This document shows, in pieces, positions 14,319-27,445 of a DNA stretch of 64,000 nucleotides. The position numbers and the translations under genes are program-made. The stretch comes from an uncultured Alphaproteobacteria bacterium (lineage in GTDB: Bacteria > Pseudomonadota > Alphaproteobacteria > Sphingomonadales > Sphingomonadaceae): positions 91,284-155,283 of the forward strand of contig CAVTPG010000001.1 of the NCBI GenBank assembly GCA_963736595.1, given 5' to 3'. Within the stretch, counting starts at the first letter, position 1. Each line of letters opens with the position of its first letter. The notes beneath the pieces are model-generated. The model saw only the letters and a program-made list of their open reading frames with translations, did not search any database and was not told the origin of the DNA.

Positions 14319-16917
14319 GTGCCGAAATTTCTGCCGCAATCTTTGAAACAGCGGGCCGACGAGTTGCGGCCGTTCGTGATTGCGGTGCTGGTGGCGGTCA
14401 TTTTTACGTATCTCAGCGGTACGGCTGTGTTTCGTATCGCCGATGGCTTGATGTTCGATGCTGCATCCACGCGCGCTGCTCCGCAAACCCCGAGAGTGCT
14501 ACTAATCGAACAGGACGCAGCCTTTGAGAGCATGGGCGGTGCGAAATACGATCGCTTGGTCCAAAGCGCAGCGAGAGCCGGGATCACACGCATTGGATTT
14601 GCGCAGGCTCCGCGTGACTGGGTGGGCAGCGACGACAACAAGCCCGCCATACCTGTTGTGGTCGGGATGCCAGCTCAGCGGAAACTAGGGGGCGATGTCT
14701 GGTCGCTCGATCCTGAACTGCGCACTCGCCTACCCAAAGCGGTGCAGCCGGCAGCAAGTGTGATCGCAGCATCCGATTACGGCATCTATCGGCGTCAAAT
14801 TACGGCTTTATCGACTGAGGATCGATTAATACCGACATTCGAAGCCGCGTTGTCTGGACGCGCCGTCGAAAGTCGATCATTTTTATGTCCAGATGTCCCG
14901 CGATCAAAGCATCCCGCGAGCGAACGCCTCACAGATGATTGCTGGAGATTTCAGACAAGGAAGTTTTGCAGGGATGGTGGCAGTCGTCGAACCCTCCAAG
15001 CAGCTACGGGAGCGCCGCTTTACCACGCCATTGACACCGCTAAGCCAAACCACCAGCGCCAGTGTATTTCGTGCCAATATGGTTCAGAACTTCCTTGATG
15101 GTAGGGCTGCACATAGTCTCGCGGCGTGGCAAAACTTCCTGCTTGTCATGGTTAGCGCCATGATCGCGGTGCTGGCTTTGCGATCGGTCGATGCCAAGCG
15201 GGTTGTGCTGTTCGTCATAGGCATCGGTGCGATATTGGTCATGGGGGCCGGATGGCTCGCTCTGACCATTATCAGCGCAGTTTTGCCCGTCTCGGCAATG
15301 CTGGGCGCGCTTTTGGTATCCGCCGCCACAATGGTTCTGTTGCGGGAGCATTCGCAGGATGACCGCCTGAAATCCGTCCTGGAGCGGGCAATCGGCTTCT
15401 CTTATTCGCGGTCGATACTAAACGAGCAAGCGCACCTGTCGCATTTCGTAACTGCTGCCGCTCGCAATTTGGCAATTGATAACAGCGCCGTGTTTCAATT
15501 TCGCGGTGATGGAGAGCCGCTTTACAAAGAAAACTTCGGATTTACGCCGCATGAAATGCCGGATGAAAAAACCCTTCGATTACTTTCCAAGCGCACAAAA
15601 CGAACCGGAACGGTGATCGATGTCAGCAATAAGATCTCGTCAAGAACCGAAACGAGCCACTATATAACGCGGCTTGATAATGCCGATGTGCCAACGTTCT
15701 GGTTCTTTTCAGTCAACGAAAGCGGAGATCCGGCGGCGCTTAAGCGCATCACCGATCAGGCGCAGGATATCGCCAAAACTTACGCGCGGTTTTATCGCTG
15801 GCGCGCTGATTTGTCCGCCAGCGACAGCCATGCGCGCCGGTTTCAGCCGATTGATCGGCAGATCGCCAGCGCCGCGTCGCTGATTTCCACGCAATCGGAG
15901 CAAATGCGCGAGGGGATCGAACACCTTAATACTGCGGTTGCAATTTATCACGTGGGCGGCTTTCCGGTTCATGCCAATGCGGCGATGCAAAATCTGTATG
16001 GCGATGCGGAATTGAACCTTGCGCGGGCGTCGCTGAGCGAGGCCTTGCTTACGCTGACCACATTGGAAGAAGAAGCCGTGCAGCTCCTGATCCATGACTT
16101 AATCGTTTCCGGCAGAGAAGTGCGCGTACCTGCCCGAGAATTTACTGCCAAACAGCGCATTTTGCGCATCGCAACACATCGCGATGAGACGCCTGACAAG
16201 GGTTGGCTGAACCTCATTATACTGGAAGCGCTCGACATTTCAGAGTTAAATAAGCTGGCCAATTTGCGCCATGCGGTCGGAAATTTCGTCGATAAGCAGC
16301 TTCGCAATGATTTGGAGGCGCTGGAATTCGGGGCCGATGTCGCCTTGTCGCACGCGGCAGAGATGCCTGGCCTAACCAAAGTGTTGAACCGGATACGCGA
16401 CGTTTCGCAGCGGGCGACCGGACGCCTGGATCAGGTTGCAAGTCTGCTTGACGATGCCAGCGGCACGAATCTTGAAGTTTGCTATCCAATTGACGCGCGT
16501 AAGGTGGTCGAGGATGCGTTTGAGCGCGTGCGGAATAAGGCAGAGGATTTCGAAGTCGATGTGGCGCTCGACCTGCCGGGAATCAGCGGCTTTACGATGG
16601 CCGAACCGCAGGTTTTGCTCGAAACGATAGAAGCCATGATGAACGTCGTTATTGCGGACACGCCACATGGTGGGTCGATGCGAGTATCATTGCATGAAGA
16701 GCGCGACAGTTCGCGGCTCGAAGTAACGGGCGGCATCGGCATTCCGTTCGAGCGGCTGATTGCGGCTTTCGATGCCGGGCAAAGTGAAGTTCCGGACGAG
16801 TTTCACGCCATTTCCATCGGTATCGCCAACGCGATCACATGGAAGGGGCAAGTCAGTTATTGGAGTTCCGTCGGCAAGGGCTATCGGTTCGTTATAAAAT
16901 TGCGGCGGGTTGGATGA
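14319..16917 (+). CDS. CHASE2-like membrane sensor with degenerate histidine-kinase core, +1 frameshift at T5 run 14880-14884
   Basis: N-terminal TM, periplasmic region (DGLMFD..PRVLLIEQD), three further TMs, PAS-like segment (VHANAAM), H-box-like VDKQLRNDL, C-terminal SSVGKGYRFVIKL; ~865 aa after removing one T. Confidence 0.7.
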
Positions 16918-17300
16918 TGGCGGCGCGAATACTGATTGTGGACGACGACGATCTGCTGTGCGAGATGTTGCAGGCGATGCTGGAAATGCACGGCTATGCC
17001 GTTGCAATTGCTGCCGATGGCGAGGCAGGCCTGAAATTGCTGGCTGAACAAGCGATCGATCTGGTCATTCTGGATCTCGTCATGCCCCGCATGGATGGAT
17101 TGCGTTTTTTGCGGGAGCTGCCCGACAGGATTGCCAATCCGCCGCCGATATTGATGGCTTCAGCTTCGGCAACCCCACAAATGCAGGCGCTTCACACCAA
17201 TTCGGGAGTGGCCGGAATCATCCGCAAGCCGGTGAAGTCGCAGATTTTGCTGGAAACCATCGAAACGGTGCTAGCCAAGCGGAATTCAATCGGCGCATAA
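16914..17300 (+). CDS. single-domain (CheY-like) response regulator
   Basis: ILIVDDD, LDLVMPRMDG, SA, KP; ATGA overlap with upstream stop. Confidence 0.93.
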   Translation: MMAARILIVDDDDLLCEMLQAMLEMHGYAVAIAADGEAGLKLLAEQAIDLVILDLVMPRMDGLRFLRELPDRIANPPPILMASASATPQMQALHTNSGVAGIIRKPVKSQILLETIETVLAKRNSIGA

Positions 17301-17313
17301 AGCACGCGCCACT

Positions 17314-19893
17314 ATGACTATTCCATTATTTCCCGAAGGCGGCCTTGCCAGCTCGGTCATCACGACCGTGTGGGTTGGCGTGTTCGTGCTGTGCTTCTTC
17401 AATTTGCGTTTCGGATGGGTTTTATCAGGGCTGGTCGTGCCGGGATACCTCGTGCCGCTGCTGATCATAAAGCCGCTGGCAGCGGGAATTATCGTCGTCG
17501 AAGCGGTGCTGACTTTCCTGCTCGTCTGGGTGTTTTCGGAAAAGATCGGCAAGGGCCGCTGGCCCGCTTTATTCGGGCGCGACCGGTTTATGGGGCTGAT
17601 TTTGGCTAGCATCGCGGTGCGGTTGACGCTGGACGGGTTCGCCTTGCCGGTGCTGGCTGACTGGCTGGCCGAAAACTGGAATCAGGAGCTTGACTGGCGC
17701 AGCGATTTGCAAAGTTTTGGACTGGTGATTGTGTCGCTGCTGGCCAACCAGTTTTGGAAGCCGGGGCTTACGCGCGGATTGTTCGCGATGATTGTCACGG
17801 TCGGGCTGACACTGTTAATCGTGCGGTACGGATTGATGGAATTCACCAATTTCAGGATCAGCGGCGTGTCCTACTTGTATGAGGGGCTGGCCAGTTCGAT
17901 CCTCGCCAGCCCCAAAGCCTATATGATTTTGGTGCTGACTGCGATGTATGCCAGTCATATGAATGTTAAATACGGGTGGGATTTTTCGGGCATCCTGATC
18001 CCGGCTTTGATCGCGCTGCAATGGTATCAGCCGACCAAAATCCTGACATCTTTTATCGAAGCCGGCATCATCTATTTGATTGCGATTGCCGTCCTGAAAC
18101 TGCCGATTTTCGCCAATAGGACGATGGAGGGAGGCCGCAAACTGCTGCTCTTTTTCAACATCAGTTTTGCTTACAAGCTGATCCTAGGGCATCTGCTGGT
18201 TCTGTTTGCGGTCGAGGTGAAAACAACGGACCTGTATGGGTTCGGATATTTGCTGGCGACGCTGATTGCAATCAAGGCGCATGATAAGCAGATATTCCCG
18301 CGCTTGATGCGAACGACATTGCAGGTTTCACTGGTGGGAGCAGTCGCGGGAAACCTTTTTGGTTTGTTTTTATCAACCGTTCTGCCAGTTGCAGGGGCCA
18401 ATCTGGCAAATGCGCGCATCACGGAAACCCCTTCCAGCGTGAGTGCCGAAAAGCAGTTGGCAGCTTCTGCGATCGGCAATGCCTATCTACAGCGGTGGCA
18501 GGGTGGAGCCGCGCCTATCAGCCGTCAGTCAGCCGATACGTTAACCGATCTGGTGCGATTACTGGAAGCTGGGTTGCCGCCAGTCGAGGCTAATGCGCGG
18601 GCCAGCGCAAGCGGATGGCAAGTCGTGACGTTACCGGGAAATGTCATTGCGATCATGCGTTCGGATGGGTTGGGCGGCGACTTACTGCTGCATTATCCAT
18701 CGAGCCGTGGAGCGATCGCAATCAACGCACCACGTCCGGCAAGCGCGCCTGGAACCGCGATGGCGGCCTTTGCTTTGCGCGTAAATCAGGATGCCCGTTG
18801 GCTGGTTTTAAGCGCGCCCATTCAACCCGAAGCGATCGGTCAACCCTCGGTACTGGCAGCATTCCGTTCAGGCAGCAGCTTGCCGGAATTGGATATCATA
18901 GCCGCGACGAACAGTAACTTTGCGATAGCGCAGCCCATAGTCGAGGTTGCTGGGCGGTCTGCAGCGGACATCGATATTCAAGCGCTGCGTGCGGCGATCC
19001 CGTCGCTTCAAGTGCGTTTCTCGCCTAGCGACACGACCGAAAATACGCGCGGCGATGGCGCTGTTATTCGCTTGCCCAAAGCCGATATTGCGCGATTGGC
19101 ATCCAGTCTGTCGCCCACTAGTCCGCAAAGCGCAGGCCGCTGTACCGTCAGTGCCCTCGCACCGGGCGCACAGCCGATTAAGGACATGGCCGATCTGGCA
19201 TTCCTTCGCGGAGAAGTGGCCGAGCCGGTCTTGTCCGCCATATCAGGCGAGCCGATTCCGGAGACATCGCGGATTGCGGCGCAATGGTTGGGGCTTGGCC
19301 TGAATGACTGTATCGATGATGATGGAGCGCCGCTGTGGCATCTGGCCTCGGATTTGCGGAGCGCCGGGCATTATTTCTTCGCACCCGGCCTTGCAACCGG
19401 GCGGATCGTCCACGGCTTTGCCGACGCGCAGACCGAAGGCGATGATGCCTCGCAATTCGACCGGAATGCCGTCCGCACAGCACGCGATTTCCGGCGAAAC
19501 TGGGGTGCCGGGATCGCAATGATCGCGCCAACCCAACAGGATTACGGCGGCTCGCAAATGACGGCATTCGGCGTCATCAATCAAAGCGCCATTCGCGCGC
19601 TTGGCAATCGCCCCGGTGCAATCGTCCAGCTTCGGACCCCGCCAAGCGCCGCCGATCTGAAGATTGCGCAAGGCTCTGCTTATGTCCTGTCCGGGCGGAT
19701 CCAGCGGAGCGATACTCTTGCCGACGAGGTCGAAGCGGCTTTGCGGAGCGGGGGCTACGATGTGTCGCGAATTGCGCGGCAGCAAGGGACCGCCGGGATC
19801 GAAGCGCCGCCGGAAAATTCGCTGCGCTATGTGTCGCAATCACGCAACAAACGCTATGCCGTTGTCCTGATCCCCGCAGAGCAAGCGCCATGA
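17314..19893 (+). CDS. PgsC/CapC-family polytopic membrane protein (two CapC repeats) with large C-terminal extracytoplasmic domain
   Basis: SGLVVPGYL..LFGRDRF..SFGLVIVSLLANQFWKPGL resembles B. subtilis PgsC (AGLVVPGYL..LYGRRKF..GIGIIVPGLIANTIQKQGL); second repeat SGILIPALI..EGGRKL..GFGYLLATLIA. Confidence 0.85.
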   Translation: MTIPLFPEGGLASSVITTVWVGVFVLCFFNLRFGWVLSGLVVPGYLVPLLIIKPLAAGIIVVEAVLTFLLVWVFSEKIGKGRWPALFGRDRFMGLILASIAVRLTLDGFALPVLADWLAENWNQELDWRSDLQSFGLVIVSLLANQFWKPGLTRGLFAMIVTVGLTLLIVRYGLMEFTNFRISGVSYLYEGLASSILASPKAYMILVLTAMYASHMNVKYGWDFSGILIPALIALQWYQPTKILTSFIEAGIIYLIAIAVLKLPIFANRTMEGGRKLLLFFNISFAYKLILGHLLVLFAVEVKTTDLYGFGYLLATLIAIKAHDKQIFPRLMRTTLQVSLVGAVAGNLFGLFLSTVLPVAGANLANARITETPSSVSAEKQLAASAIGNAYLQRWQGGAAPISRQSADTLTDLVRLLEAGLPPVEANARASASGWQVVTLPGNVIAIMRSDGLGGDLLLHYPSSRGAIAINAPRPASAPGTAMAAFALRVNQDARWLVLSAPIQPEAIGQPSVLAAFRSGSSLPELDIIAATNSNFAIAQPIVEVAGRSAADIDIQALRAAIPSLQVRFSPSDTTENTRGDGAVIRLPKADIARLASSLSPTSPQSAGRCTVSALAPGAQPIKDMADLAFLRGEVAEPVLSAISGEPIPETSRIAAQWLGLGLNDCIDDDGAPLWHLASDLRSAGHYFFAPGLATGRIVHGFADAQTEGDDASQFDRNAVRTARDFRRNWGAGIAMIAPTQQDYGGSQMTAFGVINQSAIRALGNRPGAIVQLRTPPSAADLKIAQGSAYVLSGRIQRSDTLADEVEAALRSGGYDVSRIARQQGTAGIEAPPENSLRYVSQSRNKRYAVVLIPAEQAP

Positions 19894-20693
19894 GCCTGAC
19901 CGCAATCCTGCGCCTGCTCGCCGTGGGGGCAATCATTCTGGCTGTGGGTGTTGGAAGCTGGATGACGTCGCCACGCATCGCGGAACTGCTGGGCGCTTCG
20001 GAAGAAGGCGCACGCGACCGGGTGGCTTTAAGCGACCGCACCCTGGTATATCGGTTGAAAGATGCCCGCACCACGCGCTTCGTTTTCTCGCAGCCCAGCA
20101 CCATTGCACGGGTTTTATCGACGCCCGCGATTGCCGAGGCCGTCTGGGATGACGGCACACGCTGGAGCTATGGCTACCGCGTCACCTTGCGCGACAGCGG
20201 CGATAATATGGTCGCGTCCCACGATATTTATTCCAGCGCCGCCAATCCGGCAAACCTAGAAGAACCGCTGAATATCGTTCGGTTCACACGCGGCGGAACG
20301 GGCGGCATCGGCACGCAGGATCAGGCCGTAATTGCCTCGGACACACCATTTGTTGCGATGGATATTGGCCCATTGCCCTCAGATAAAGGCGTCGACGCAG
20401 TGTATGTCCGCGCTTACGAACGTCGCCCATTTCTAGGCGGTGCGGCGGCGCTGGCGGCCTATCGCAGACGCAGCGATGACGAACGCGAAGTGCTGACCCG
20501 CGCAAATGCCTTCCCCGAGCGCTTTATCAGCAATGCGGAACGACAAAACAGCGTCATCAACCAGTGGCGACCGCTTGGCCCGTCCGGTATATCGGGCCGC
20601 GACTATGACGTGCTGGTCATGTATAAAGGCACGCTCGACAGCGAGGCGGAAGACGGCGACGATGGAGATGGCGACGATGGAGAGGGTGGCTGA
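19890..20693 (+). CDS. hypothetical membrane-anchored/exported protein with acidic tail
   Basis: N-terminal hydrophobic helix; start/stop overlaps on both sides; tail DSEAEDGDDGDGDDGEGG. Confidence 0.8.
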   Translation: MSLTAILRLLAVGAIILAVGVGSWMTSPRIAELLGASEEGARDRVALSDRTLVYRLKDARTTRFVFSQPSTIARVLSTPAIAEAVWDDGTRWSYGYRVTLRDSGDNMVASHDIYSSAANPANLEEPLNIVRFTRGGTGGIGTQDQAVIASDTPFVAMDIGPLPSDKGVDAVYVRAYERRPFLGGAAALAAYRRRSDDEREVLTRANAFPERFISNAERQNSVINQWRPLGPSGISGRDYDVLVMYKGTLDSEAEDGDDGDGDDGEGG

Positions 20694-21553
20694 TGGCGCG
20701 GCGCAAATGGCTGCTCCTTTTGGGGATCGTGATTGTGGCGTTTAGTGCAGCCATGCTGGCAGGCCTGTTCCCGCCGCTGCGTTCCAGCAACGGGTTCGAG
20801 CGACCGGGCGCAGTGGACTTGTCGCGCGCAGAGGCGATGTTTGCCGCTGGGCTTGGCGCTCCCAAATCAAGCGAATGGCGTGAGGCGGCGAGCGATCTTG
20901 GCTGGCAAGCACGCGATGCAGAAGGATTTGCGCAACTCGTCGAACCATCTGGGAATTGCCAGGGGCGCGGCGTGTACCTCATCGGTTTGTCGCCTGATGC
21001 TGCGCCAACCGCCATGACTGCCCCCCATCGCGGGGCCGACAAGCATACTGGAACACTGGCGGCCATGTTCGCAGAGGAAGGCAAGTTGGCTGCTGCAGCG
21101 TGGAATTCCGCGCCTCGCCGAAAATCCGCAGAGTGCGATGCTTTTGGCGATCTGGCAAAGGCGGAGGAGCATTTTTTCACGGCCTTTGCCCTAAGTTTTG
21201 CGCAAGCCTACCCGCAAGGCCGCGTCGTGCAATTGCACGGTTTCGATCGCGACAATCGCCAAAGTCTTGCGGGAAGCGAGGCCGACATCATTATCAGTGA
21301 CGGGACCGATCAGCCGGGCGACCGCTTGCTGGCCTTGTCGGAATGCCTGACGATCTCGCTGCAGGCGTGGAACGTGCGCGTTTATCCGCTCGATGCGCCG
21401 GAACTGGGCGCGCTTAAAAATGCACAAGGCGCCGCGTTGCGAGAGCAGGGTTTTGAGGGATTTACCCATATTGAAATGAGTTTGAACTTGCGTCTCGCCT
21501 TACGCAAAGACACGGGATTACGCGCACAATTCCTCAACTGTTTCAAAGCATGA
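20693..21553 (+). CDS. membrane-anchored putative zinc hydrolase, PghP (poly-gamma-glutamate hydrolase)/N-formylglutamate amidohydrolase-like
   Basis: Ordered motifs TAPHRGAD, VQLHGF, THIEMS..LR; N-terminal TM. Confidence 0.6.
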   Translation: MARRKWLLLLGIVIVAFSAAMLAGLFPPLRSSNGFERPGAVDLSRAEAMFAAGLGAPKSSEWREAASDLGWQARDAEGFAQLVEPSGNCQGRGVYLIGLSPDAAPTAMTAPHRGADKHTGTLAAMFAEEGKLAAAAWNSAPRRKSAECDAFGDLAKAEEHFFTAFALSFAQAYPQGRVVQLHGFDRDNRQSLAGSEADIIISDGTDQPGDRLLALSECLTISLQAWNVRVYPLDAPELGALKNAQGAALREQGFEGFTHIEMSLNLRLALRKDTGLRAQFLNCFKA

Positions 21554-24500
21554 GCAATCAGGCCATGCTGCTGGCCACGCCGTGCCGTATCAATGCGGCG
21601 CTGGAAGTCGGCTTGCCTGAAATGCTGTGCGGCACTTACGCCGATATTCACGAATCGATTGCGCATTTTGCCGCGCAGACGGGCGATCACGACGCGGTCG
21701 GAAATTTCACCGATCATGCCAAGACGCTGATTGCTTTCGTTAAGCACCGCTTAGGTCATATCGGTGATCTGCATGATGCCGCCGCGCTGTTCAATGCGCG
21801 CTTTGCCAATGCTCTGGACCGCGCAGCAGAGCGGGCCGCAATTATGGATTTCGCCGAACGGCTGGGCGCTGACGCTGCGCAACTTGAGCGCGACAGGAAG
21901 GCATTCGACAGGTTCTTCGACGGCGATGCCGTGAGCGAACGATATCGGCGGCGCGTCGGAGAAGCCGAGCGCGAATTGGCTCACACAGTGGAGCGGCTGG
22001 GCCTGGTCGCCGGTGAGGCGTTGCGTGTCGGTGAAATGGCCGGTGATGACGAGTTGTTGAGCAAAGCAATTGCCGGCGTGCTGACGGATGCGCGAAGTTA
22101 TCGCGGGGATGCGCGCGTCAAACAAGCGGGGTTCCGCGCGTTGCACCATATTGGCACAGGCGCGCTCGAACCGCTAACCGGCTTTTGGATCGACATTGCC
22201 ATTCGCGACACTCGGCGGCTGGCGCTGGACACGAGCGAAGACACCTGGGCGCAATGCGATGCGTTTGCCACCTTGCTCACGATGGCGCCCGGCTCGCTCG
22301 AACCCGTGTTGGAGCGGCGATTAGGCAAGTCCAGTCTGGAAGGCCCTCCCTTGCGGCAGGAGAACCGGATGTTCGTGCGGCGCTATCTGGCCGATCTGCT
22401 GTGCGAGGCCGTGCCGGATCACCCGAAGCTGTCGAAATATCTCAGCCGGATCGCCAATGATCGCAACGGCGCGGTTCGGCAGGCGCTGGCCAAGGCGCTG
22501 GTCAAATTGCCGCGTGACGAGGCAAAACCGCTCGTGTCGCGATTGCGAATCGATCAGGATCCGCAAGTCCGCGCGATGCTGTTCGCGCAGCCGCAAGCGA
22601 TGGCGCAAACGATCGGCGGCGCCATGTATCGCTCGCATATCATCCGGGTTCTGTCGCGCGATGAGGACACTCATGTTTTGCGGATGGCGATGGATGCGGC
22701 GGTTAAGCTGGTCGCGTGGCAAGGTGGGCATGAGCCAGCCCAACAGGCCGAAAGTGTTACGCAATTGCGACAGGCGCTTAGTGTGTTGCGGGCGCGCAGC
22801 ACGGCGGCCAATAGGCGGCGCTGGGCAGGCGAAGCGATGGAGCGGATCTGGCTTTATTCAGACGCCGATGCGCTGGATATGGCGGAATATATCCGTTTTC
22901 AAATGGCAGCCACTGCCGAGGGGCAGCGTCGCAAATTGCCCGAGCTAGCCGATGTGGCCAAATCTGATCCGCATTTCATCGGACGCATTATGGCCGTTCT
23001 GGCGCAGGATGGGTTTGGGCTGGAGTTAATTGCCGGATCGGTGCCGCGAATGCAAAAAGGGGAGCGATTTGCACGTCGGTTGTGGCGCATTCTGTTCGAG
23101 TTGCGCGTCTCCTCGACCGACAAACGACAGGCCTTCCTGCACACGATCGGGCGCAGCTTGCCCGGAACGATCTCTGCCCCGGCCGCGCATATGGCCGAAC
23201 TGGCTCCGACCAAGGTTCCGGGTGAGCCGCTGCATTTTGCCGATGAGGGCGGGTGGCGCAATTATCTGCCGCTGGTCGATCATGCGCTGGCAGCGATCGA
23301 TCGAGGCAAGACAACGCGCATTTTCACCAGTGAAGGCGTGACGTCGCTGACCGCTCCATCAGGCGTGCTCGCGCGCATTACCGCCTATTGGCAGGTCAGT
23401 CGCAACTTCGCTCGGCTTGCGGCATTGCGCAATCAGGGCGGCAGTTCAGACTATGTCGACGCGTTGCGCCAATATGGCCTGTCGGTCGAATTCCAGGCGC
23501 ACGACGCATATGAAGCGCCGCTTTTAACACCGCAAAAGCAAACTGCGCTTAAGTTCGATCAGCCACAAACCGCCAGCGATCCCGAAGTGGTCAGATTATT
23601 CGATCTTGGCGGCGTGCTAATCGCCGTGCCGGTGCTGCTAAAAAGCGCAGCAGCATACTTTGCCACGGTTTTTGCCAACACGCTGGGCCAGCTTGCTTTG
23701 TTTCTGCTGCTTGCAGGAGGATGGTTCGTCGGACGCCACCTGTATCTTGGCTACAAGGCGCGCCGCTATCGCAATGCAATCCCTCTGTCGCTGGGTGGCT
23801 GGGGAACGCGCGGTAAATCCGGGACCGAGCGGCTGAAGGCGGGGTTGATCAATGCTTTGGGCCACCCGCTGGTGTCGAAAACGACAGGTTGCGAAGCGAT
23901 GTTCCTGCGCGGCGAGCCATTTGGCGGCCTCACCGAAATGTTTCTGTTTCGCCCGTATGACAAGGCGACGATCTGGGAGCAGTTTAATCTGATCCGCATT
24001 TCCGTCGGGCTAAAGGCGCGCGTATTTTTGTGGGAATGCATGGGCCTTAACCCGTCCTATGTGCGGGTGCTGCAACGCGACTGGATGCGCGATAATATCG
24101 GTACCATTACAAATACTTACCCTGACCATGAAGACGTGCAGGGTCCGGCAGGGCGCAACATCCCTGAAGTAATGCGCGAGTTCATTCCGGAAAACTCCGT
24201 GCTGCTGACAACCGAAGAAGAGATGCTGCCGATCCTGCGCGAAGGCGCGGCGCAGGCCAATACGCGAATGCGCGCGATCGATTGGCGCGAGGCGGGTCTG
24301 GTGCATGAAAATCTACTCGCGCGGTTTCCCTATGCCGAGCATCCCTATAATATCGCGCTGGTGGCGGCGATGGGGGATGAGCTGGGTCTGGGCGAGGATT
24401 TCTGCATCAGAGAAATGTCCGATCGCGTGGTGGCAGATTTGGGCGTGCTAAAAATCTATCCGCAAGCCAATGTCGATGGGCGCATTCTGGAATTCGTGAT

Positions 24501-25782
24501 GGGGATGAGCGCGAATGAGCGGTTCGGCGCAATGGGAAATTGGGACCGGATGGGCTTTGCCGACCATGATCTTGGCGAAGATCCGGCAATTTACGTCAGC
24601 ACCGTGGTCAATAATCGCGCCGACCGGGTGCCGCGATCGCAGGTCTTTGCGCGCCTGTTGGTGAATGACATATCAGCGGACAAGCATTTCCTGATCGGAT
24701 CGAATATCGATGGACTGATCGGATTTATCGAGGAAGAATGGGAGGCTTATGCAGCGCGCCTGAGCCTGGAAAGCGATACAGACGACACACCTGCCGAAAT
24801 TTTTGAGCGCCTGGCGCGCCAGCAACGTGTGCCGCTGAACCAAGAGCAAATAGAGCGGCGATTGATGGCGATGCTGACAGCAATTGCCGATAATGAGCGG
24901 GCAAATACGCTGGTCCGCGCTGCGCGTGAAGGCCAACTCGCTGCATCTTTTACCGATGATGAGCGCGCACTGGGTGAGCAGATCTCCGAAGAACACGCGG
25001 AAATGGTTAAATCGCTAGAGGAGTATCAAGCGCTATCTAGCGTAATATCGAAAGGTGGCGCGGCGGAACATTTGGCGCGCGTTCGTGCATTCCTGCACGC
25101 TGCTTTCATGCGCAAACTGGTTCCGGTTCGCGATGTTCACATGTCGGGTGAGAATATCGTGCGGCTGATCGCGCATCATTCACCGCCGGGCCTGACAAAT
25201 CGCATTATGGGGATGCAGAATATCAAAGGGACGGGCCTGGATTTTGTCTATCGCTGGCAAGCGTGGGAGCAAGTGCATCGAGCGTGCGCGCAGGCGCGTG
25301 ATGCGGATCCAATGGTTGCGGAAAAGGGCTTGTCTGCGCTGGCCGGCTTTCAGGAATATGGCATTTTAAGCGGAAGCGAGGTTCGCCGCACAATCGCCGA
25401 ATTGCAAATCCGCGACGAACTGCCCGTATCGTTCACGCCCGCGCAGCTTGATGCGATTATTGCGCGCGTCGATACGCAGCTTGGCGAACTGGACGCGGCG
25501 GCGCGAATGGACGGCGAGGAGGCAGGCAGCGCAAGCATCCCATCACGGTTTGCTGGCAGGGTGGTCGAAATCGTGGAAGCCTTTGTCGATGCGGGCGATG
25601 CCGTGCGCCGCCGCCGGCAAGCCGATGCGATTTATAAAGCCATGATTGCCGAGCAGATCAGCAGCCAGCGCGCCGCGCTGGAATTGAAAAAACTGACGAT
25701 GCGGCAAAAGGGTGGCTGGCTGGCCGAATCAATCACCCAAGGGCAAGGCCGATTTGCGAGCCTGTTCCGGCGCTCTGCCTAA
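21550..25782 (+). CDS. HEAT-repeat + PgsB/CapB poly-gamma-glutamate synthase-like amide ligase fusion (1410 aa)
   Basis: GTRGKS..RL, KTTG, EQ, ECMGLNP.Y, TN..PDH.DVQGP, MSANE, NNRADRV.RS, GMQNIKG match PgsB motifs in order; HEAT-like repeats DRNGAVRQALAKAL, DQDPQVRAML. Confidence 0.88.
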   Translation: MSNQAMLLATPCRINAALEVGLPEMLCGTYADIHESIAHFAAQTGDHDAVGNFTDHAKTLIAFVKHRLGHIGDLHDAAALFNARFANALDRAAERAAIMDFAERLGADAAQLERDRKAFDRFFDGDAVSERYRRRVGEAERELAHTVERLGLVAGEALRVGEMAGDDELLSKAIAGVLTDARSYRGDARVKQAGFRALHHIGTGALEPLTGFWIDIAIRDTRRLALDTSEDTWAQCDAFATLLTMAPGSLEPVLERRLGKSSLEGPPLRQENRMFVRRYLADLLCEAVPDHPKLSKYLSRIANDRNGAVRQALAKALVKLPRDEAKPLVSRLRIDQDPQVRAMLFAQPQAMAQTIGGAMYRSHIIRVLSRDEDTHVLRMAMDAAVKLVAWQGGHEPAQQAESVTQLRQALSVLRARSTAANRRRWAGEAMERIWLYSDADALDMAEYIRFQMAATAEGQRRKLPELADVAKSDPHFIGRIMAVLAQDGFGLELIAGSVPRMQKGERFARRLWRILFELRVSSTDKRQAFLHTIGRSLPGTISAPAAHMAELAPTKVPGEPLHFADEGGWRNYLPLVDHALAAIDRGKTTRIFTSEGVTSLTAPSGVLARITAYWQVSRNFARLAALRNQGGSSDYVDALRQYGLSVEFQAHDAYEAPLLTPQKQTALKFDQPQTASDPEVVRLFDLGGVLIAVPVLLKSAAAYFATVFANTLGQLALFLLLAGGWFVGRHLYLGYKARRYRNAIPLSLGGWGTRGKSGTERLKAGLINALGHPLVSKTTGCEAMFLRGEPFGGLTEMFLFRPYDKATIWEQFNLIRISVGLKARVFLWECMGLNPSYVRVLQRDWMRDNIGTITNTYPDHEDVQGPAGRNIPEVMREFIPENSVLLTTEEEMLPILREGAAQANTRMRAIDWREAGLVHENLLARFPYAEHPYNIALVAAMGDELGLGEDFCIREMSDRVVADLGVLKIYPQANVDGRILEFVMGMSANERFGAMGNWDRMGFADHDLGEDPAIYVSTVVNNRADRVPRSQVFARLLVNDISADKHFLIGSNIDGLIGFIEEEWEAYAARLSLESDTDDTPAEIFERLARQQRVPLNQEQIERRLMAMLTAIADNERANTLVRAAREGQLAASFTDDERALGEQISEEHAEMVKSLEEYQALSSVISKGGAAEHLARVRAFLHAAFMRKLVPVRDVHMSGENIVRLIAHHSPPGLTNRIMGMQNIKGTGLDFVYRWQAWEQVHRACAQARDADPMVAEKGLSALAGFQEYGILSGSEVRRTIAELQIRDELPVSFTPAQLDAIIARVDTQLGELDAAARMDGEEAGSASIPSRFAGRVVEIVEAFVDAGDAVRRRRQADAIYKAMIAEQISSQRAALELKKLTMRQKGGWLAESITQGQGRFASLFRRSA

Positions 25783-26687
25783 AACCGGTAGCCGACATCC
25801 AGCGAAAAGCGCGGAGCATCCTCGCGAAAGCGCACATCATTCGAATCGCGAAATTCGTACTCAGCGCGCGCTTGCGCATAAAAGCCACGCGCCTTGCCAT
25901 ACGACAGGCCAATCTCGGGATTGACGACGGTATCGCGCCGCAATGCCTCAGCGCCATCCTGTCGCGCAATCCGCGCGTCATATCGCCATTGGCTATATTC
26001 CAGCGCGGGCCGCAAACGCAGTCGCTTGGTCAGAGGCAGGCTATAGTCGGCCCGGACGACTTCCCGGCTGTAGCTAAGCCGCTCCCGATCGCTGTCGATC
26101 GCATCATGGCGAGCAGTGAGCCGGGCCCAGTGGTACGATGCGATGCGGCGATTATATTGCGCTTCGATGCGCGGCCCTTCGCCACTGGACCGGACGGCAT
26201 CATCGTAATCGCGAAAACGATATTCGCCGCGTAGCCGCACGCGATTGTCGGCATCTTCCCAAAGCATCTCGCCGCGAACCGAACGCTGATCGACACTACG
26301 CGATTCTAAAGTAACCAGATTGGACACTCGCCTTGAGCGCAGAGCAATTCGCACATTCTCGCTCACCTGTTGACGCACTTCGACCGACAGACCTAAACTC
26401 TTGCGCGTTTTGCGCTCATCATCGCTGAAGTCGAACACGGTTGGATCAACGGAGATGCGGATTTGTGTCGCATTTTCGGTAAAAGTTACGGAGGCGGCGG
26501 CGCTGATCCCGACGCCTGAGCTTTCCACGTCATCGCCTTGGAAAATCGCGCGCTCAGCCTCAACAGCCGATAATGTCGTGCGCAGATCAAAATCAATGTC
26601 GTCCAGAGCAATCGCTGGTCCGGCAAGCCCAAACAAAGCGGCGCAAGCCACTAGCATCCGTAAAATGTGACGCGCCGCGAATATCAT
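25779..26687 (-). CDS. outer-membrane beta-barrel protein
   Basis: Signal peptide (..GPAIA), alternating amphipathic strands, C-terminal SLDVGYRF. Confidence 0.8.
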   Translation of the reverse strand: MIFAARHILRMLVACAALFGLAGPAIALDDIDFDLRTTLSAVEAERAIFQGDDVESSGVGISAAASVTFTENATQIRISVDPTVFDFSDDERKTRKSLGLSVEVRQQVSENVRIALRSRRVSNLVTLESRSVDQRSVRGEMLWEDADNRVRLRGEYRFRDYDDAVRSSGEGPRIEAQYNRRIASYHWARLTARHDAIDSDRERLSYSREVVRADYSLPLTKRLRLRPALEYSQWRYDARIARQDGAEALRRDTVVNPEIGLSYGKARGFYAQARAEYEFRDSNDVRFREDAPRFSLDVGYRF

Positions 26688-27445
26688 CGCGACAGCGCCT
26701 CGCGAAACTTACACAAAATATGAACCAGATCGGTTGGCTTGCACGTGTTGAGGCGCGCCTCAAGCGCTAAGGCCAGTTCGCTTAATGCTTCTTCGCCGAA
26801 GGAGCCTGCCGTGCCGGCCAGCTTGTGGATCATATTGCGCAGCTCGCTCACAGTTTCGTGCGTCACGATCTCGCCAGCACAAATAGCCTCGATCCGTTCG
26901 AACAGGTCAGTTTTGCGAAGCTGATACCGCGCAATGAGCGCCGGGCTGGGGCCCTCGCTATCTGTTTGCTGCGTGGCAATAATCTGCGGCGCCCAGGCCT
27001 GTACAATGTCCGTAAGATCAGCGATCGACACGGGCTTTGAGAGATAGGCTTGCATTCCCGCGGCTAGGTAAGGCTGCACTTCATGCGGCGCGGTTGCGGC
27101 GGTGACGGCAACAACGGGCAATTCGGTTTCGGTGATTCCTGTAGCGCGCAATCGCTTCACGACCTCGATTCCGTCGATAATGGGCATCATCGCGTCCAGC
27201 AGCAAAAGGGAGTAAGGCCGGCCAGCCTCTTTTGCTGCGCAAATCATGGTGATCGCTTCCAACCCGTCACAAACCCAAGCGATTGGCAAACCGATGCGCT
27301 TTCCCAACATCACAATCAGCTCACCCACGATGGGATTGTCTTCGGCCAGCAGGATCTGCGCCCGGTCATCTGGCGCACCGTCAGCAGATGTAACGCGCGC
27401 ATCTCCGATCGTTCGATGCGGTCCGGGGAAGTTGGCCATATGCAT
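26684..27445 (-). CDS. receiver + Hpt domain phosphorelay protein
   Basis: LLAEDN, LDAMMPIIDG, TA, YLSKP; Hpt motif IHKLAGTAGSFG. Confidence 0.9.
   Translation of the reverse strand: MHMANFPGPHRTIGDARVTSADGAPDDRAQILLAEDNPIVGELIVMLGKRIGLPIAWVCDGLEAITMICAAKEAGRPYSLLLLDAMMPIIDGIEVVKRLRATGITETELPVVAVTAATAPHEVQPYLAAGMQAYLSKPVSIADLTDIVQAWAPQIIATQQTDSEGPSPALIARYQLRKTDLFERIEAICAGEIVTHETVSELRNMIHKLAGTAGSFGEEALSELALALEARLNTCKPTDLVHILCKFREALSR

Follow-up and report, generated by a model that had tools for sequence, protein, structure and literature searches.

An arginine-rich 14-stranded beta-barrel linked to a PgsB/CapC-type cluster is a candidate outer-membrane channel for a poly-amino-acid in Sphingomonadales

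We analysed a 64,000-nucleotide stretch of DNA (the window; GenBank assembly GCA_963736595.1, contig CAVTPG010000001.1, positions 91,284 to 155,283) from an uncultured alphaproteobacterium of the Sphingomonadaceae, in which the gene of an arginine-rich outer-membrane beta-barrel, P0001, lies beside a cluster encoding a PgsB/CapB-like amide ligase and a protein with two CapC domains (Table 1). The original prediction, made from the letters alone, had proposed that this barrel is the exit channel for an anionic polymer. The open reading frame on which it was based is confirmed, on the minus strand; a plus-strand reading of the same interval was rejected, as its frame is full of stops. The stop codons of the barrel gene and of the convergent ligase gene overlap tail to tail by 4 bp (25779-25782), so that no terminator would fit between the operons. 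Where other genomes share this convergent arrangement (arrangement A, below), the gap between the two genes mostly measures tens to about 200 bp. At its other end, the barrel start codon overlaps the stop of a REC-Hpt phosphorelay gene as ATGA, indicating translational coupling. A signalling role for the barrel, considered on the basis of this co-transcription, is unlikely because an outer-membrane barrel cannot touch a cytoplasmic relay protein; the pairing of the two genes would rather reflect their co-regulation.

Table 1. Positions of the barrel gene, its protein features and the neighbouring genes in the window (aa, amino acids; TM, transmembrane; AF2, AlphaFold2; ORF, open reading frame)
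Feature	Position	Strand	Description	Basis
Barrel gene P0001	25779..26687	minus	302 aa; predicted 14-stranded Arg-rich outer-membrane beta-barrel; stop codon 25779-25781	ORF, translation, AF2 model
Signal peptide	26607..26687	minus	aa 1-27, cleavage site between AIA and L	Sequence reading, Ala27 conservation, AF2 model
Loop L1	26517..26555	minus	aa 45-57, longest loop, acidic motif G[ED][DE][VI][ED]SSG	Conserved in CapBC-linked sequences
Strand 7	26205..26246	minus	aa 148-161, NRVRLRGEYRFRDY, predicted lumen-facing Arg R149/R151/R153/R157/R159	Alternation analysis
C-terminal beta-signal	25782..25802	minus	LDVGYRF, terminal Phe	Sequence; homologue conservation
REC-Hpt phosphorelay gene	26684..27445	minus		Pfam Response_reg + Hpt
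Membrane kinase-like protein and receiver	14893..17300	plus	674 aa and 153 aa	Synteny; conserved cluster members
Double-CapC protein	17314..19893	plus	859 aa, two CapC/PgsC domains, soluble tail of about 500 aa	PF14102 1e-37, two stretches; TM prediction
Membrane-anchored protein	19890..20693	plus	267 aa, function unassigned, conserved in cluster	Synteny, TM prediction
Membrane-anchored hydrolase-like protein	20693..21553	plus	286 aa, formylglutamate-amidohydrolase / poly-gamma-glutamate-hydrolase-like fold	AF2, fold comparison
HEAT + PgsB/CapB-like amide ligase	21550..25782	plus	1410 aa	TIGR04012 1e-53, aa 738-1074

P0001 carries the features general to outer-membrane beta-barrels, namely a signal peptide, amphipathic strands and a C-terminal aromatic beta-signal. 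The signal peptide is of the Sec type, with arginine in its n-region and a hydrophobic core, and reads MIFAARHILRMLVACAALFGLAGPAIA followed by LDD, the cut falling after residue 27; Ala27 is at least 90% conserved in 20 close homologues, and the AlphaFold2 model places a helix at residues 2-25 and begins strand 1 at residue 31. At the other terminus, Phe302 is invariant in the same homologues, and G299 and R301 are each at least 90% conserved. All three arginine-rich motifs named in the prediction were found in the protein, RVRLRGEYRFRDY at residues 149-161, RLRLRP at 222-227 and RAEYEFRD at 274-281, and arginine accounts for 14.9% of its residues compared with 5-10% in neighbouring proteins. 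Taken with the model described below, these features lead us to predict that the barrel is a Sec-exported, monomer-sized, 14-stranded protein inserted into the outer membrane by the beta-barrel assembly machinery (BAM).

The model of the barrel was built with a 20-sequence alignment and reached a mean predicted local distance difference test score (pLDDT) of 88.2 and a predicted template modelling score (pTM) of 0.80. It has 14 strands of 11-18 residues, every connecting loop is at most 13 residues long, and neither a helical nor a plug domain is present. A structural search against representatives returned CymA as the best match (Z 21.4, root-mean-square deviation 3.5, 265 residues aligned) and OmpG as the second (Z 20.3, root-mean-square deviation 2.9, 231 residues aligned), followed by the polymer exporters PgaA (Z 16.9) and PelB (Z 15.7) and, lower down, by OprP (Z 14.8), AlgE (Z 13.4) and KdgM (Z 13.1); Foldseek agreed with this ranking. 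Using established barrel geometry (n = 14, shear about 16), we calculated a C-alpha radius of about 13 Å, which would give room for a single extended polymer chain unless a loop folds in. A narrow or plugged lumen would have spoken against the proposed channel. The absence of a plug domain, the short loops and the match to CymA and OmpG would be compatible with an open pore; on the other side, the acidic loop L1 could still gate it. Model confidence is lowest in L1, where pLDDT is low at residues 50-52, and it is speculation on our part that this loop may act as a gate. A separate feature concerns the outer face of the barrel. The outward phase of strands 7-11 (residues 148-240; window about 25968-26246) is weakly hydrophobic, with a family mean Kyte-Doolittle (KD) value of about -0.3 to +0.3 compared with +1 to +2 for most other strands, which hints at a protein-protein interface or an oligomerisation surface.

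To assign residues to the lumen we combined the strand boundaries of the model with family-averaged hydrophobicity for each alternating phase of the strands, using 55 sequences from three subfamilies. By this assignment, the lumen-facing positions of P0001 hold 26 Arg and 8 Asp + 8 Glu. The predicted lumen is basic in all three clades, which are named below after their genomic contexts, with a mean charge of about +10 in the CapBC-linked, +5 in the RloBC-linked and +7 in the ABC-linked clade, in line with the arginine-lined pore that had been proposed. Ten lumen-facing arginines (R119, R149, R151, R157, R159, R181, R193, R208, R250 and R293) are conserved in all three clades and two more, R224 and R226, in two of the three. 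Since arginine alternates with hydrophobic residues in the predicted strands and these ten positions are conserved across 55 homologues, the pattern is not due to chance. Four of the ten, R149, R151, R157 and R159, are stacked as a ladder on strand 7, and conservation in all three subfamilies reaches 97-100% for R149, R157 and R159 and 84-100% for R151. Two acidic residues assigned to the lumen are conserved too, D252 in nearly all sequences and D195 without exception. Conserved arginines would thus line the pore as they do in AlgE, a likeness that is an analogy and does not show homology.

The barrel is genomically linked to a PgsB/CapC-type system in an obligate partnership. Co-occurrence with capB and capC had been put forward as a check on the channel proposal, and the two were found adjacent in every locus whose contig reaches far enough. 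Among 41 relatives, the barrel and the cluster occur together in the same five genomes (G000 included), and a sixth, G013, lacks the cluster but encodes a more distantly related barrel. Scanning about 185,000 species genomes with the 20-sequence barrel alignment, and with the L1 motif as the scan pattern, yielded 27 loci, 25 of which show the full adjacent cluster; the remaining two are cut by contig ends, one (L040) after the first cluster genes and the other (L047) just past the barrel. Three arrangements were seen. Arrangement A is that of the window, with the REC-Hpt and barrel genes converging on the ligase gene at its 3' end; in arrangement B (11 loci) the same pair diverges from the 5' end of the cluster; and in arrangement C (G016, L021:5062-5940) the barrel gene leads the cluster on the same strand and has no REC-Hpt partner. 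The outer flanks vary, with parAB in some loci and acyl-CoA dehydrogenase, GSDH and GAF genes in others, so that the linkage is not mere shared synteny. In a 401-genome order sample, CapC was found in 12 genomes. Eleven of these belong to the window's own family and have a double CapC, giving two CapC matches per genome, and they are exactly the 11 genomes with the best barrel matches (E <= 1e-96). The twelfth, G037, from another family, encodes a canonical single CapC with a PgsB-sized ligase (C1:504890-506526, L012) and has no barrel match, which indicates that not every diderm capBC system uses this barrel family.

The nature of the polymer is suggested by two proteins of the cluster, the PgsB-like ligase and its 286-residue neighbour. 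The latter has an N-terminal transmembrane segment and a confident model (pLDDT 91), whose best fold matches are of the formylglutamate-amidohydrolase type (2odf, Z 13.9; 2q7s, Z 13.0; one of the two is annotated as that enzyme). Poly-gamma-glutamate (PGA) hydrolases follow closely, namely YndL with bound PGA (Z 12.9), the phage PM1 enzyme (Z 12.5) and PghP (Z 12.0), compared with a Z of 10.8 or lower for other zinc peptidases. Residues H112, D116, H182 and E261 are invariant, and no sequence match was obtained in Pfam, PHROGs or PDB sequences. The hydrolase-like fold of this protein supports a glutamyl-amide polymer, and the product would be polyglutamate-like and anionic. In a related locus from Qipengyuania sp. 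DGS5-3, a weak PGA_cap/CapA-like match (26% identity; L049:11837-12484, minus strand) lies about 1 kb downstream of a CapBC-type barrel.

The barrel family occurs in two further genomic contexts. The RloBC-type context comprises 19 loci, 18 from the order sample together with G013 (L022:6987-10691 (G013), L087, L088, L090-L096, L098, L100-L107), in which a barrel of 27-36% identity is the first gene of the operon. The second gene encodes a short seven-transmembrane (7TM) protein (PF14402) whose best NCBIfam match is the 7TM part of RloB, and the third an ATP-grasp enzyme (PF14397) that matches TIGR02291, 'alpha-L-glutamate ligase-like', at 1.6e-70, below the cut-off of that model. In own-family genomes with the short 7TM protein the barrel lies immediately upstream in 19 of 19 cases, and genomes with full-length RloB types gave no barrel match. 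In the ABC-type context, seen at five loci (L086:5073-11414, L089:6497-10423, L097, L099 and L108:5794-11870), the barrel follows a P-loop protein of ~450 residues, MobB/AAA_26-like, and an ABC exporter; a CapA/PGA_cap gene lies near the barrel in two of the five (L086 and L108). The P-loop protein was considered as a relative of the PgsB-like ligase and rejected, no similarity between them being found. In a maximum-likelihood tree, the ABC-type (100/99) and RloBC-type (99/95) barrels each form a clade and 30 of the 31 CapBC-type rows fall in one group (100/99). The long-branched CapBC-linked barrel of G016 falls beside the RloBC clade, which could mean that it was recruited independently or that its long branch misplaces it. 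Two family members, in separate loci, are present in some genomes: G207 has one RloBC-type and one ABC-type locus (L094 and L086 between them), and G239 (L087/L100) and G339 (L088/L093) have two RloBC-type loci each. At L088 a P-loop gene adjoins the RloBC-type locus.

The barrel family is therefore tied three times to amide-ligase or exporter modules with a glutamate-polymer theme. Work on Pseudomonas aeruginosa (PMC11957051) describes RloB and RloC as partners of a secreted retropepsin, RloA, that cuts polyglutamate in vitro; its authors suggested a poly-alpha-glutamate product and report no outer-membrane component. The gene order described here suggests that RloBC-like systems headed by the barrel export polyglutamate across the outer membrane. 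If so, such systems would make an exported polyglutamate, and the sister clade provides a testable hypothesis for the product of RloABC (PMC11957051).

By sequence, the barrel belongs to an unnamed family, which is not the AlgE family. Pfam gave sub-threshold matches of P0001 to BBP2_2 (PF10082; 21.2 versus 23.7 bits, residues 156-300 only) and to OMP_b-brl, and no match to TPR, to SlipAM (PF04575) or, at E <= 0.01, to Alginate_exp (PF13372); the last was also absent from the families listed for 50 family members. NCBIfam gave no match, and a family-profile search of PDB sequences found no relative. BBP2_2 is weakly matched by 22 of the 50 members (best E-value 3.6e-7), so that a distant relationship is possible, and SlipAM is weakly matched by 3 of the 50. 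Protein-language-model look-alikes in the ESM Atlas include BBP2_2 and SlipAM clusters. An exhaustive profile search of 1.84 billion representatives returned 155 proteins at E <= 1e-3. The family is confined to the window's own family in a sample of 401 genomes taken across the phylum; 43 of 275 own-family genomes in the order sample have a match (G000 included), and named public-genome matches come from Erythrobacteraceae and a few entries labelled Sphingomonadaceae. Six weak full-length or partial barrel matches (L080-L085) have none of the query genes nearby.

On the basis of the fold, the lumen arginines and the genomic linkage, we propose that P0001 is the outer-membrane conduit for an anionic poly-amino-acid made by the adjacent synthase, the PgsB-like ligase and the double CapC, and we put the probability of this reading at roughly 0.6. 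The support is good but circumstantial, transport and its direction being what we infer from it. In the proposed mechanism, the periplasm would be bridged by the anchored CapC tail, the 267-residue protein and the 286-residue hydrolase-like protein. The conserved arginines would line a water-filled lumen through which a single extended chain would thread by successive carboxylate-arginine contacts along the strand 7 ladder, with the opposing R119, R181, R193, R208, R250 and R293 joining in guiding it. At idle, the conserved acidic L1 may sit in the basic pore.

Several points weigh against the conduit reading. The match of the ligase to TIGR04012 falls short of the equivalog cut-off (182.5 versus 222.7 bits), and poly-gamma-glutamate is for this reason a likely product and not a certain one. 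The barrel is transcribed with the REC-Hpt gene, on the strand opposite to the synthase genes. The mature protein (275 residues, 48 Asp + Glu) has a net charge of -1, i.e., it is arginine-rich and not net basic, and family means are -7 to -12; as the lumen is net positive by our assignment, basic residues would cluster inside, leaving the acidic ones mainly to loops and turns. Even so, 16-20 acidic residues also face the lumen across the family, and the pore could be plugged by the acidic L1. Unlike PgaA, BcsC and PelB, the barrel has no TPR-type domain in the periplasm, and a passive channel by itself gives no direction of transport. Finally, the genomes compared are related, being from one family, and the counts are not independent, a concern that the three arrangements and three contexts mitigate.

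Strict linkage shows that the barrel is a member of the module and says nothing about its role, and it might instead be a Wzi-like surface anchor, an assembly factor or another structural partner, with the polymer crossing the outer membrane elsewhere. Conserved motifs in the extracellular loops L1, L3 and L7 would fit such a function, and the weakly hydrophobic outer faces of strands 7-11 could serve as its protein interface. However, these loops are very short, there is no extra domain for binding, and the conserved residues concentrate on the lumen face. Nor was a second outer-membrane candidate seen among the conserved cluster proteins, which match no outer-membrane family in Pfam or NCBIfam and whose N-termini resemble transmembrane anchors. 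We consider an anchoring role unlikely.

The lack of an intrinsic direction also leaves room for uptake, in which glutamate oligomers freed outside the cell by the hydrolase of the cluster would re-enter the periplasm through the barrel for recycling, as in the KdgM/NanC-like channels. Small monomeric arginine-lined barrels are known importers of acidic oligomers, KdgM is among the fold matches of P0001, and a PGA-hydrolase-like protein encoded in the cluster fits such a scheme. That protein is anchored in the inner membrane, though, and its cleavage would be periplasmic and not extracellular. All three contexts centre on ligases or exporters rather than on catabolic or uptake genes, and no periplasmic binding protein or importer adjoins the barrel, so that uptake, next in order among the alternatives, is improbable as well. 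Least probable of all is a Slam-like translocon for protein cargo, for which the SlipAM and BBP2_2 resemblances given above could speak but which would need the N-terminal TPR domain of Slam (P0001 is barrel only, and its model has no N-terminal domain) and lipoprotein cargo (the 267- and 286-residue proteins have no Cys in their N-terminal anchors and are not lipoproteins), or a general diffusion porin that simply shares the regulation of the cluster, which would not track three polymer modules yet appear in so small a fraction of own-family genomes.

Returning to the conduit reading, poly-gamma-glutamate synthesis has been worked out almost wholly in Gram-positive bacteria, and the literature searched yielded no outer-membrane polyglutamate exporter in diderm bacteria. 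For such an exit pore, P0001 is the strongest candidate to date. A broader proposal, in which we have about even confidence, is that P0001 is the founding member of an undescribed family of 14-stranded, arginine-laddered channels for polyglutamate-type poly-amino-acids, recruited by three non-homologous inner-membrane systems of Sphingomonadales (PgsB/double-CapC, RloB-like 7TM/ATP-grasp glutamate ligase, and P-loop/ABC exporter with CapA), and that it is the first known diderm exit pore for a peptide-type capsule or slime polymer. Dedicated exit barrels for polymers are already known as a kind of component; the new elements would be the barrel family, its 14-strand architecture without TPR, a polyamide as substrate and recruitment by three systems. 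Channels of this dedicated kind would close the gap in diderm export and give a starting point for engineering Gram-negative hosts that secrete PGA, and a small barrel with a clear arginine ladder would be a tractable model of how a polyanion threads a beta-barrel.

AlgE is the alginate export porin of Pseudomonas and was the comparison made in the original prediction. The functional side of that comparison stands: both are outer-membrane barrels with lumen-facing arginines, and the gene of each accompanies those for making an anionic polymer. Membership of the AlgE family is rejected, in view of the missing family-model match and of the strand number, AlgE having 18 strands and about 490 residues and P0001 14 strands and 275 mature residues; the fold match between them is generic. 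AlgE also works with a periplasmic AlgK/AlgX scaffold, and its substrate is a polysaccharide, not a polyamide. The dedicated exit barrels of other synthase-dependent systems, PgaA, BcsC and PelB, likewise have a lumen charge complementary to their polymer, yet these are 16-stranded and fused to large periplasmic TPR domains, whereas P0001 has no periplasmic domain. Closest in architecture are OmpG and CymA, 14-stranded monomer-sized barrels with Z scores well above those of the next matches, and the common strand number implies a similar diameter, wide enough for linear oligomers. They differ in sequence, with about 10% identity in the structural alignments and no match by profile, and in function, both being sugar importers from catabolic operons; OmpG has longer gating loops and CymA an N-terminal plug. 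The only sequence-level resemblances of the family are to BBP2_2 and SlipAM/Slam, and Slam differs in having a TPR domain and lipoprotein cargo nearby. OprP, a phosphate porin with an arginine ladder, offers a further parallel, the shared idea being that anions would be passed through the pore by arginines stacked on a single strand; OprP itself is trimeric and 16-stranded, carries small anions and has no sequence relation to the barrel. By analogy with these systems, the arginine ladder of P0001 would pass the carboxylates of its polymer in an AlgE- or OprP-like manner while belonging to neither family.

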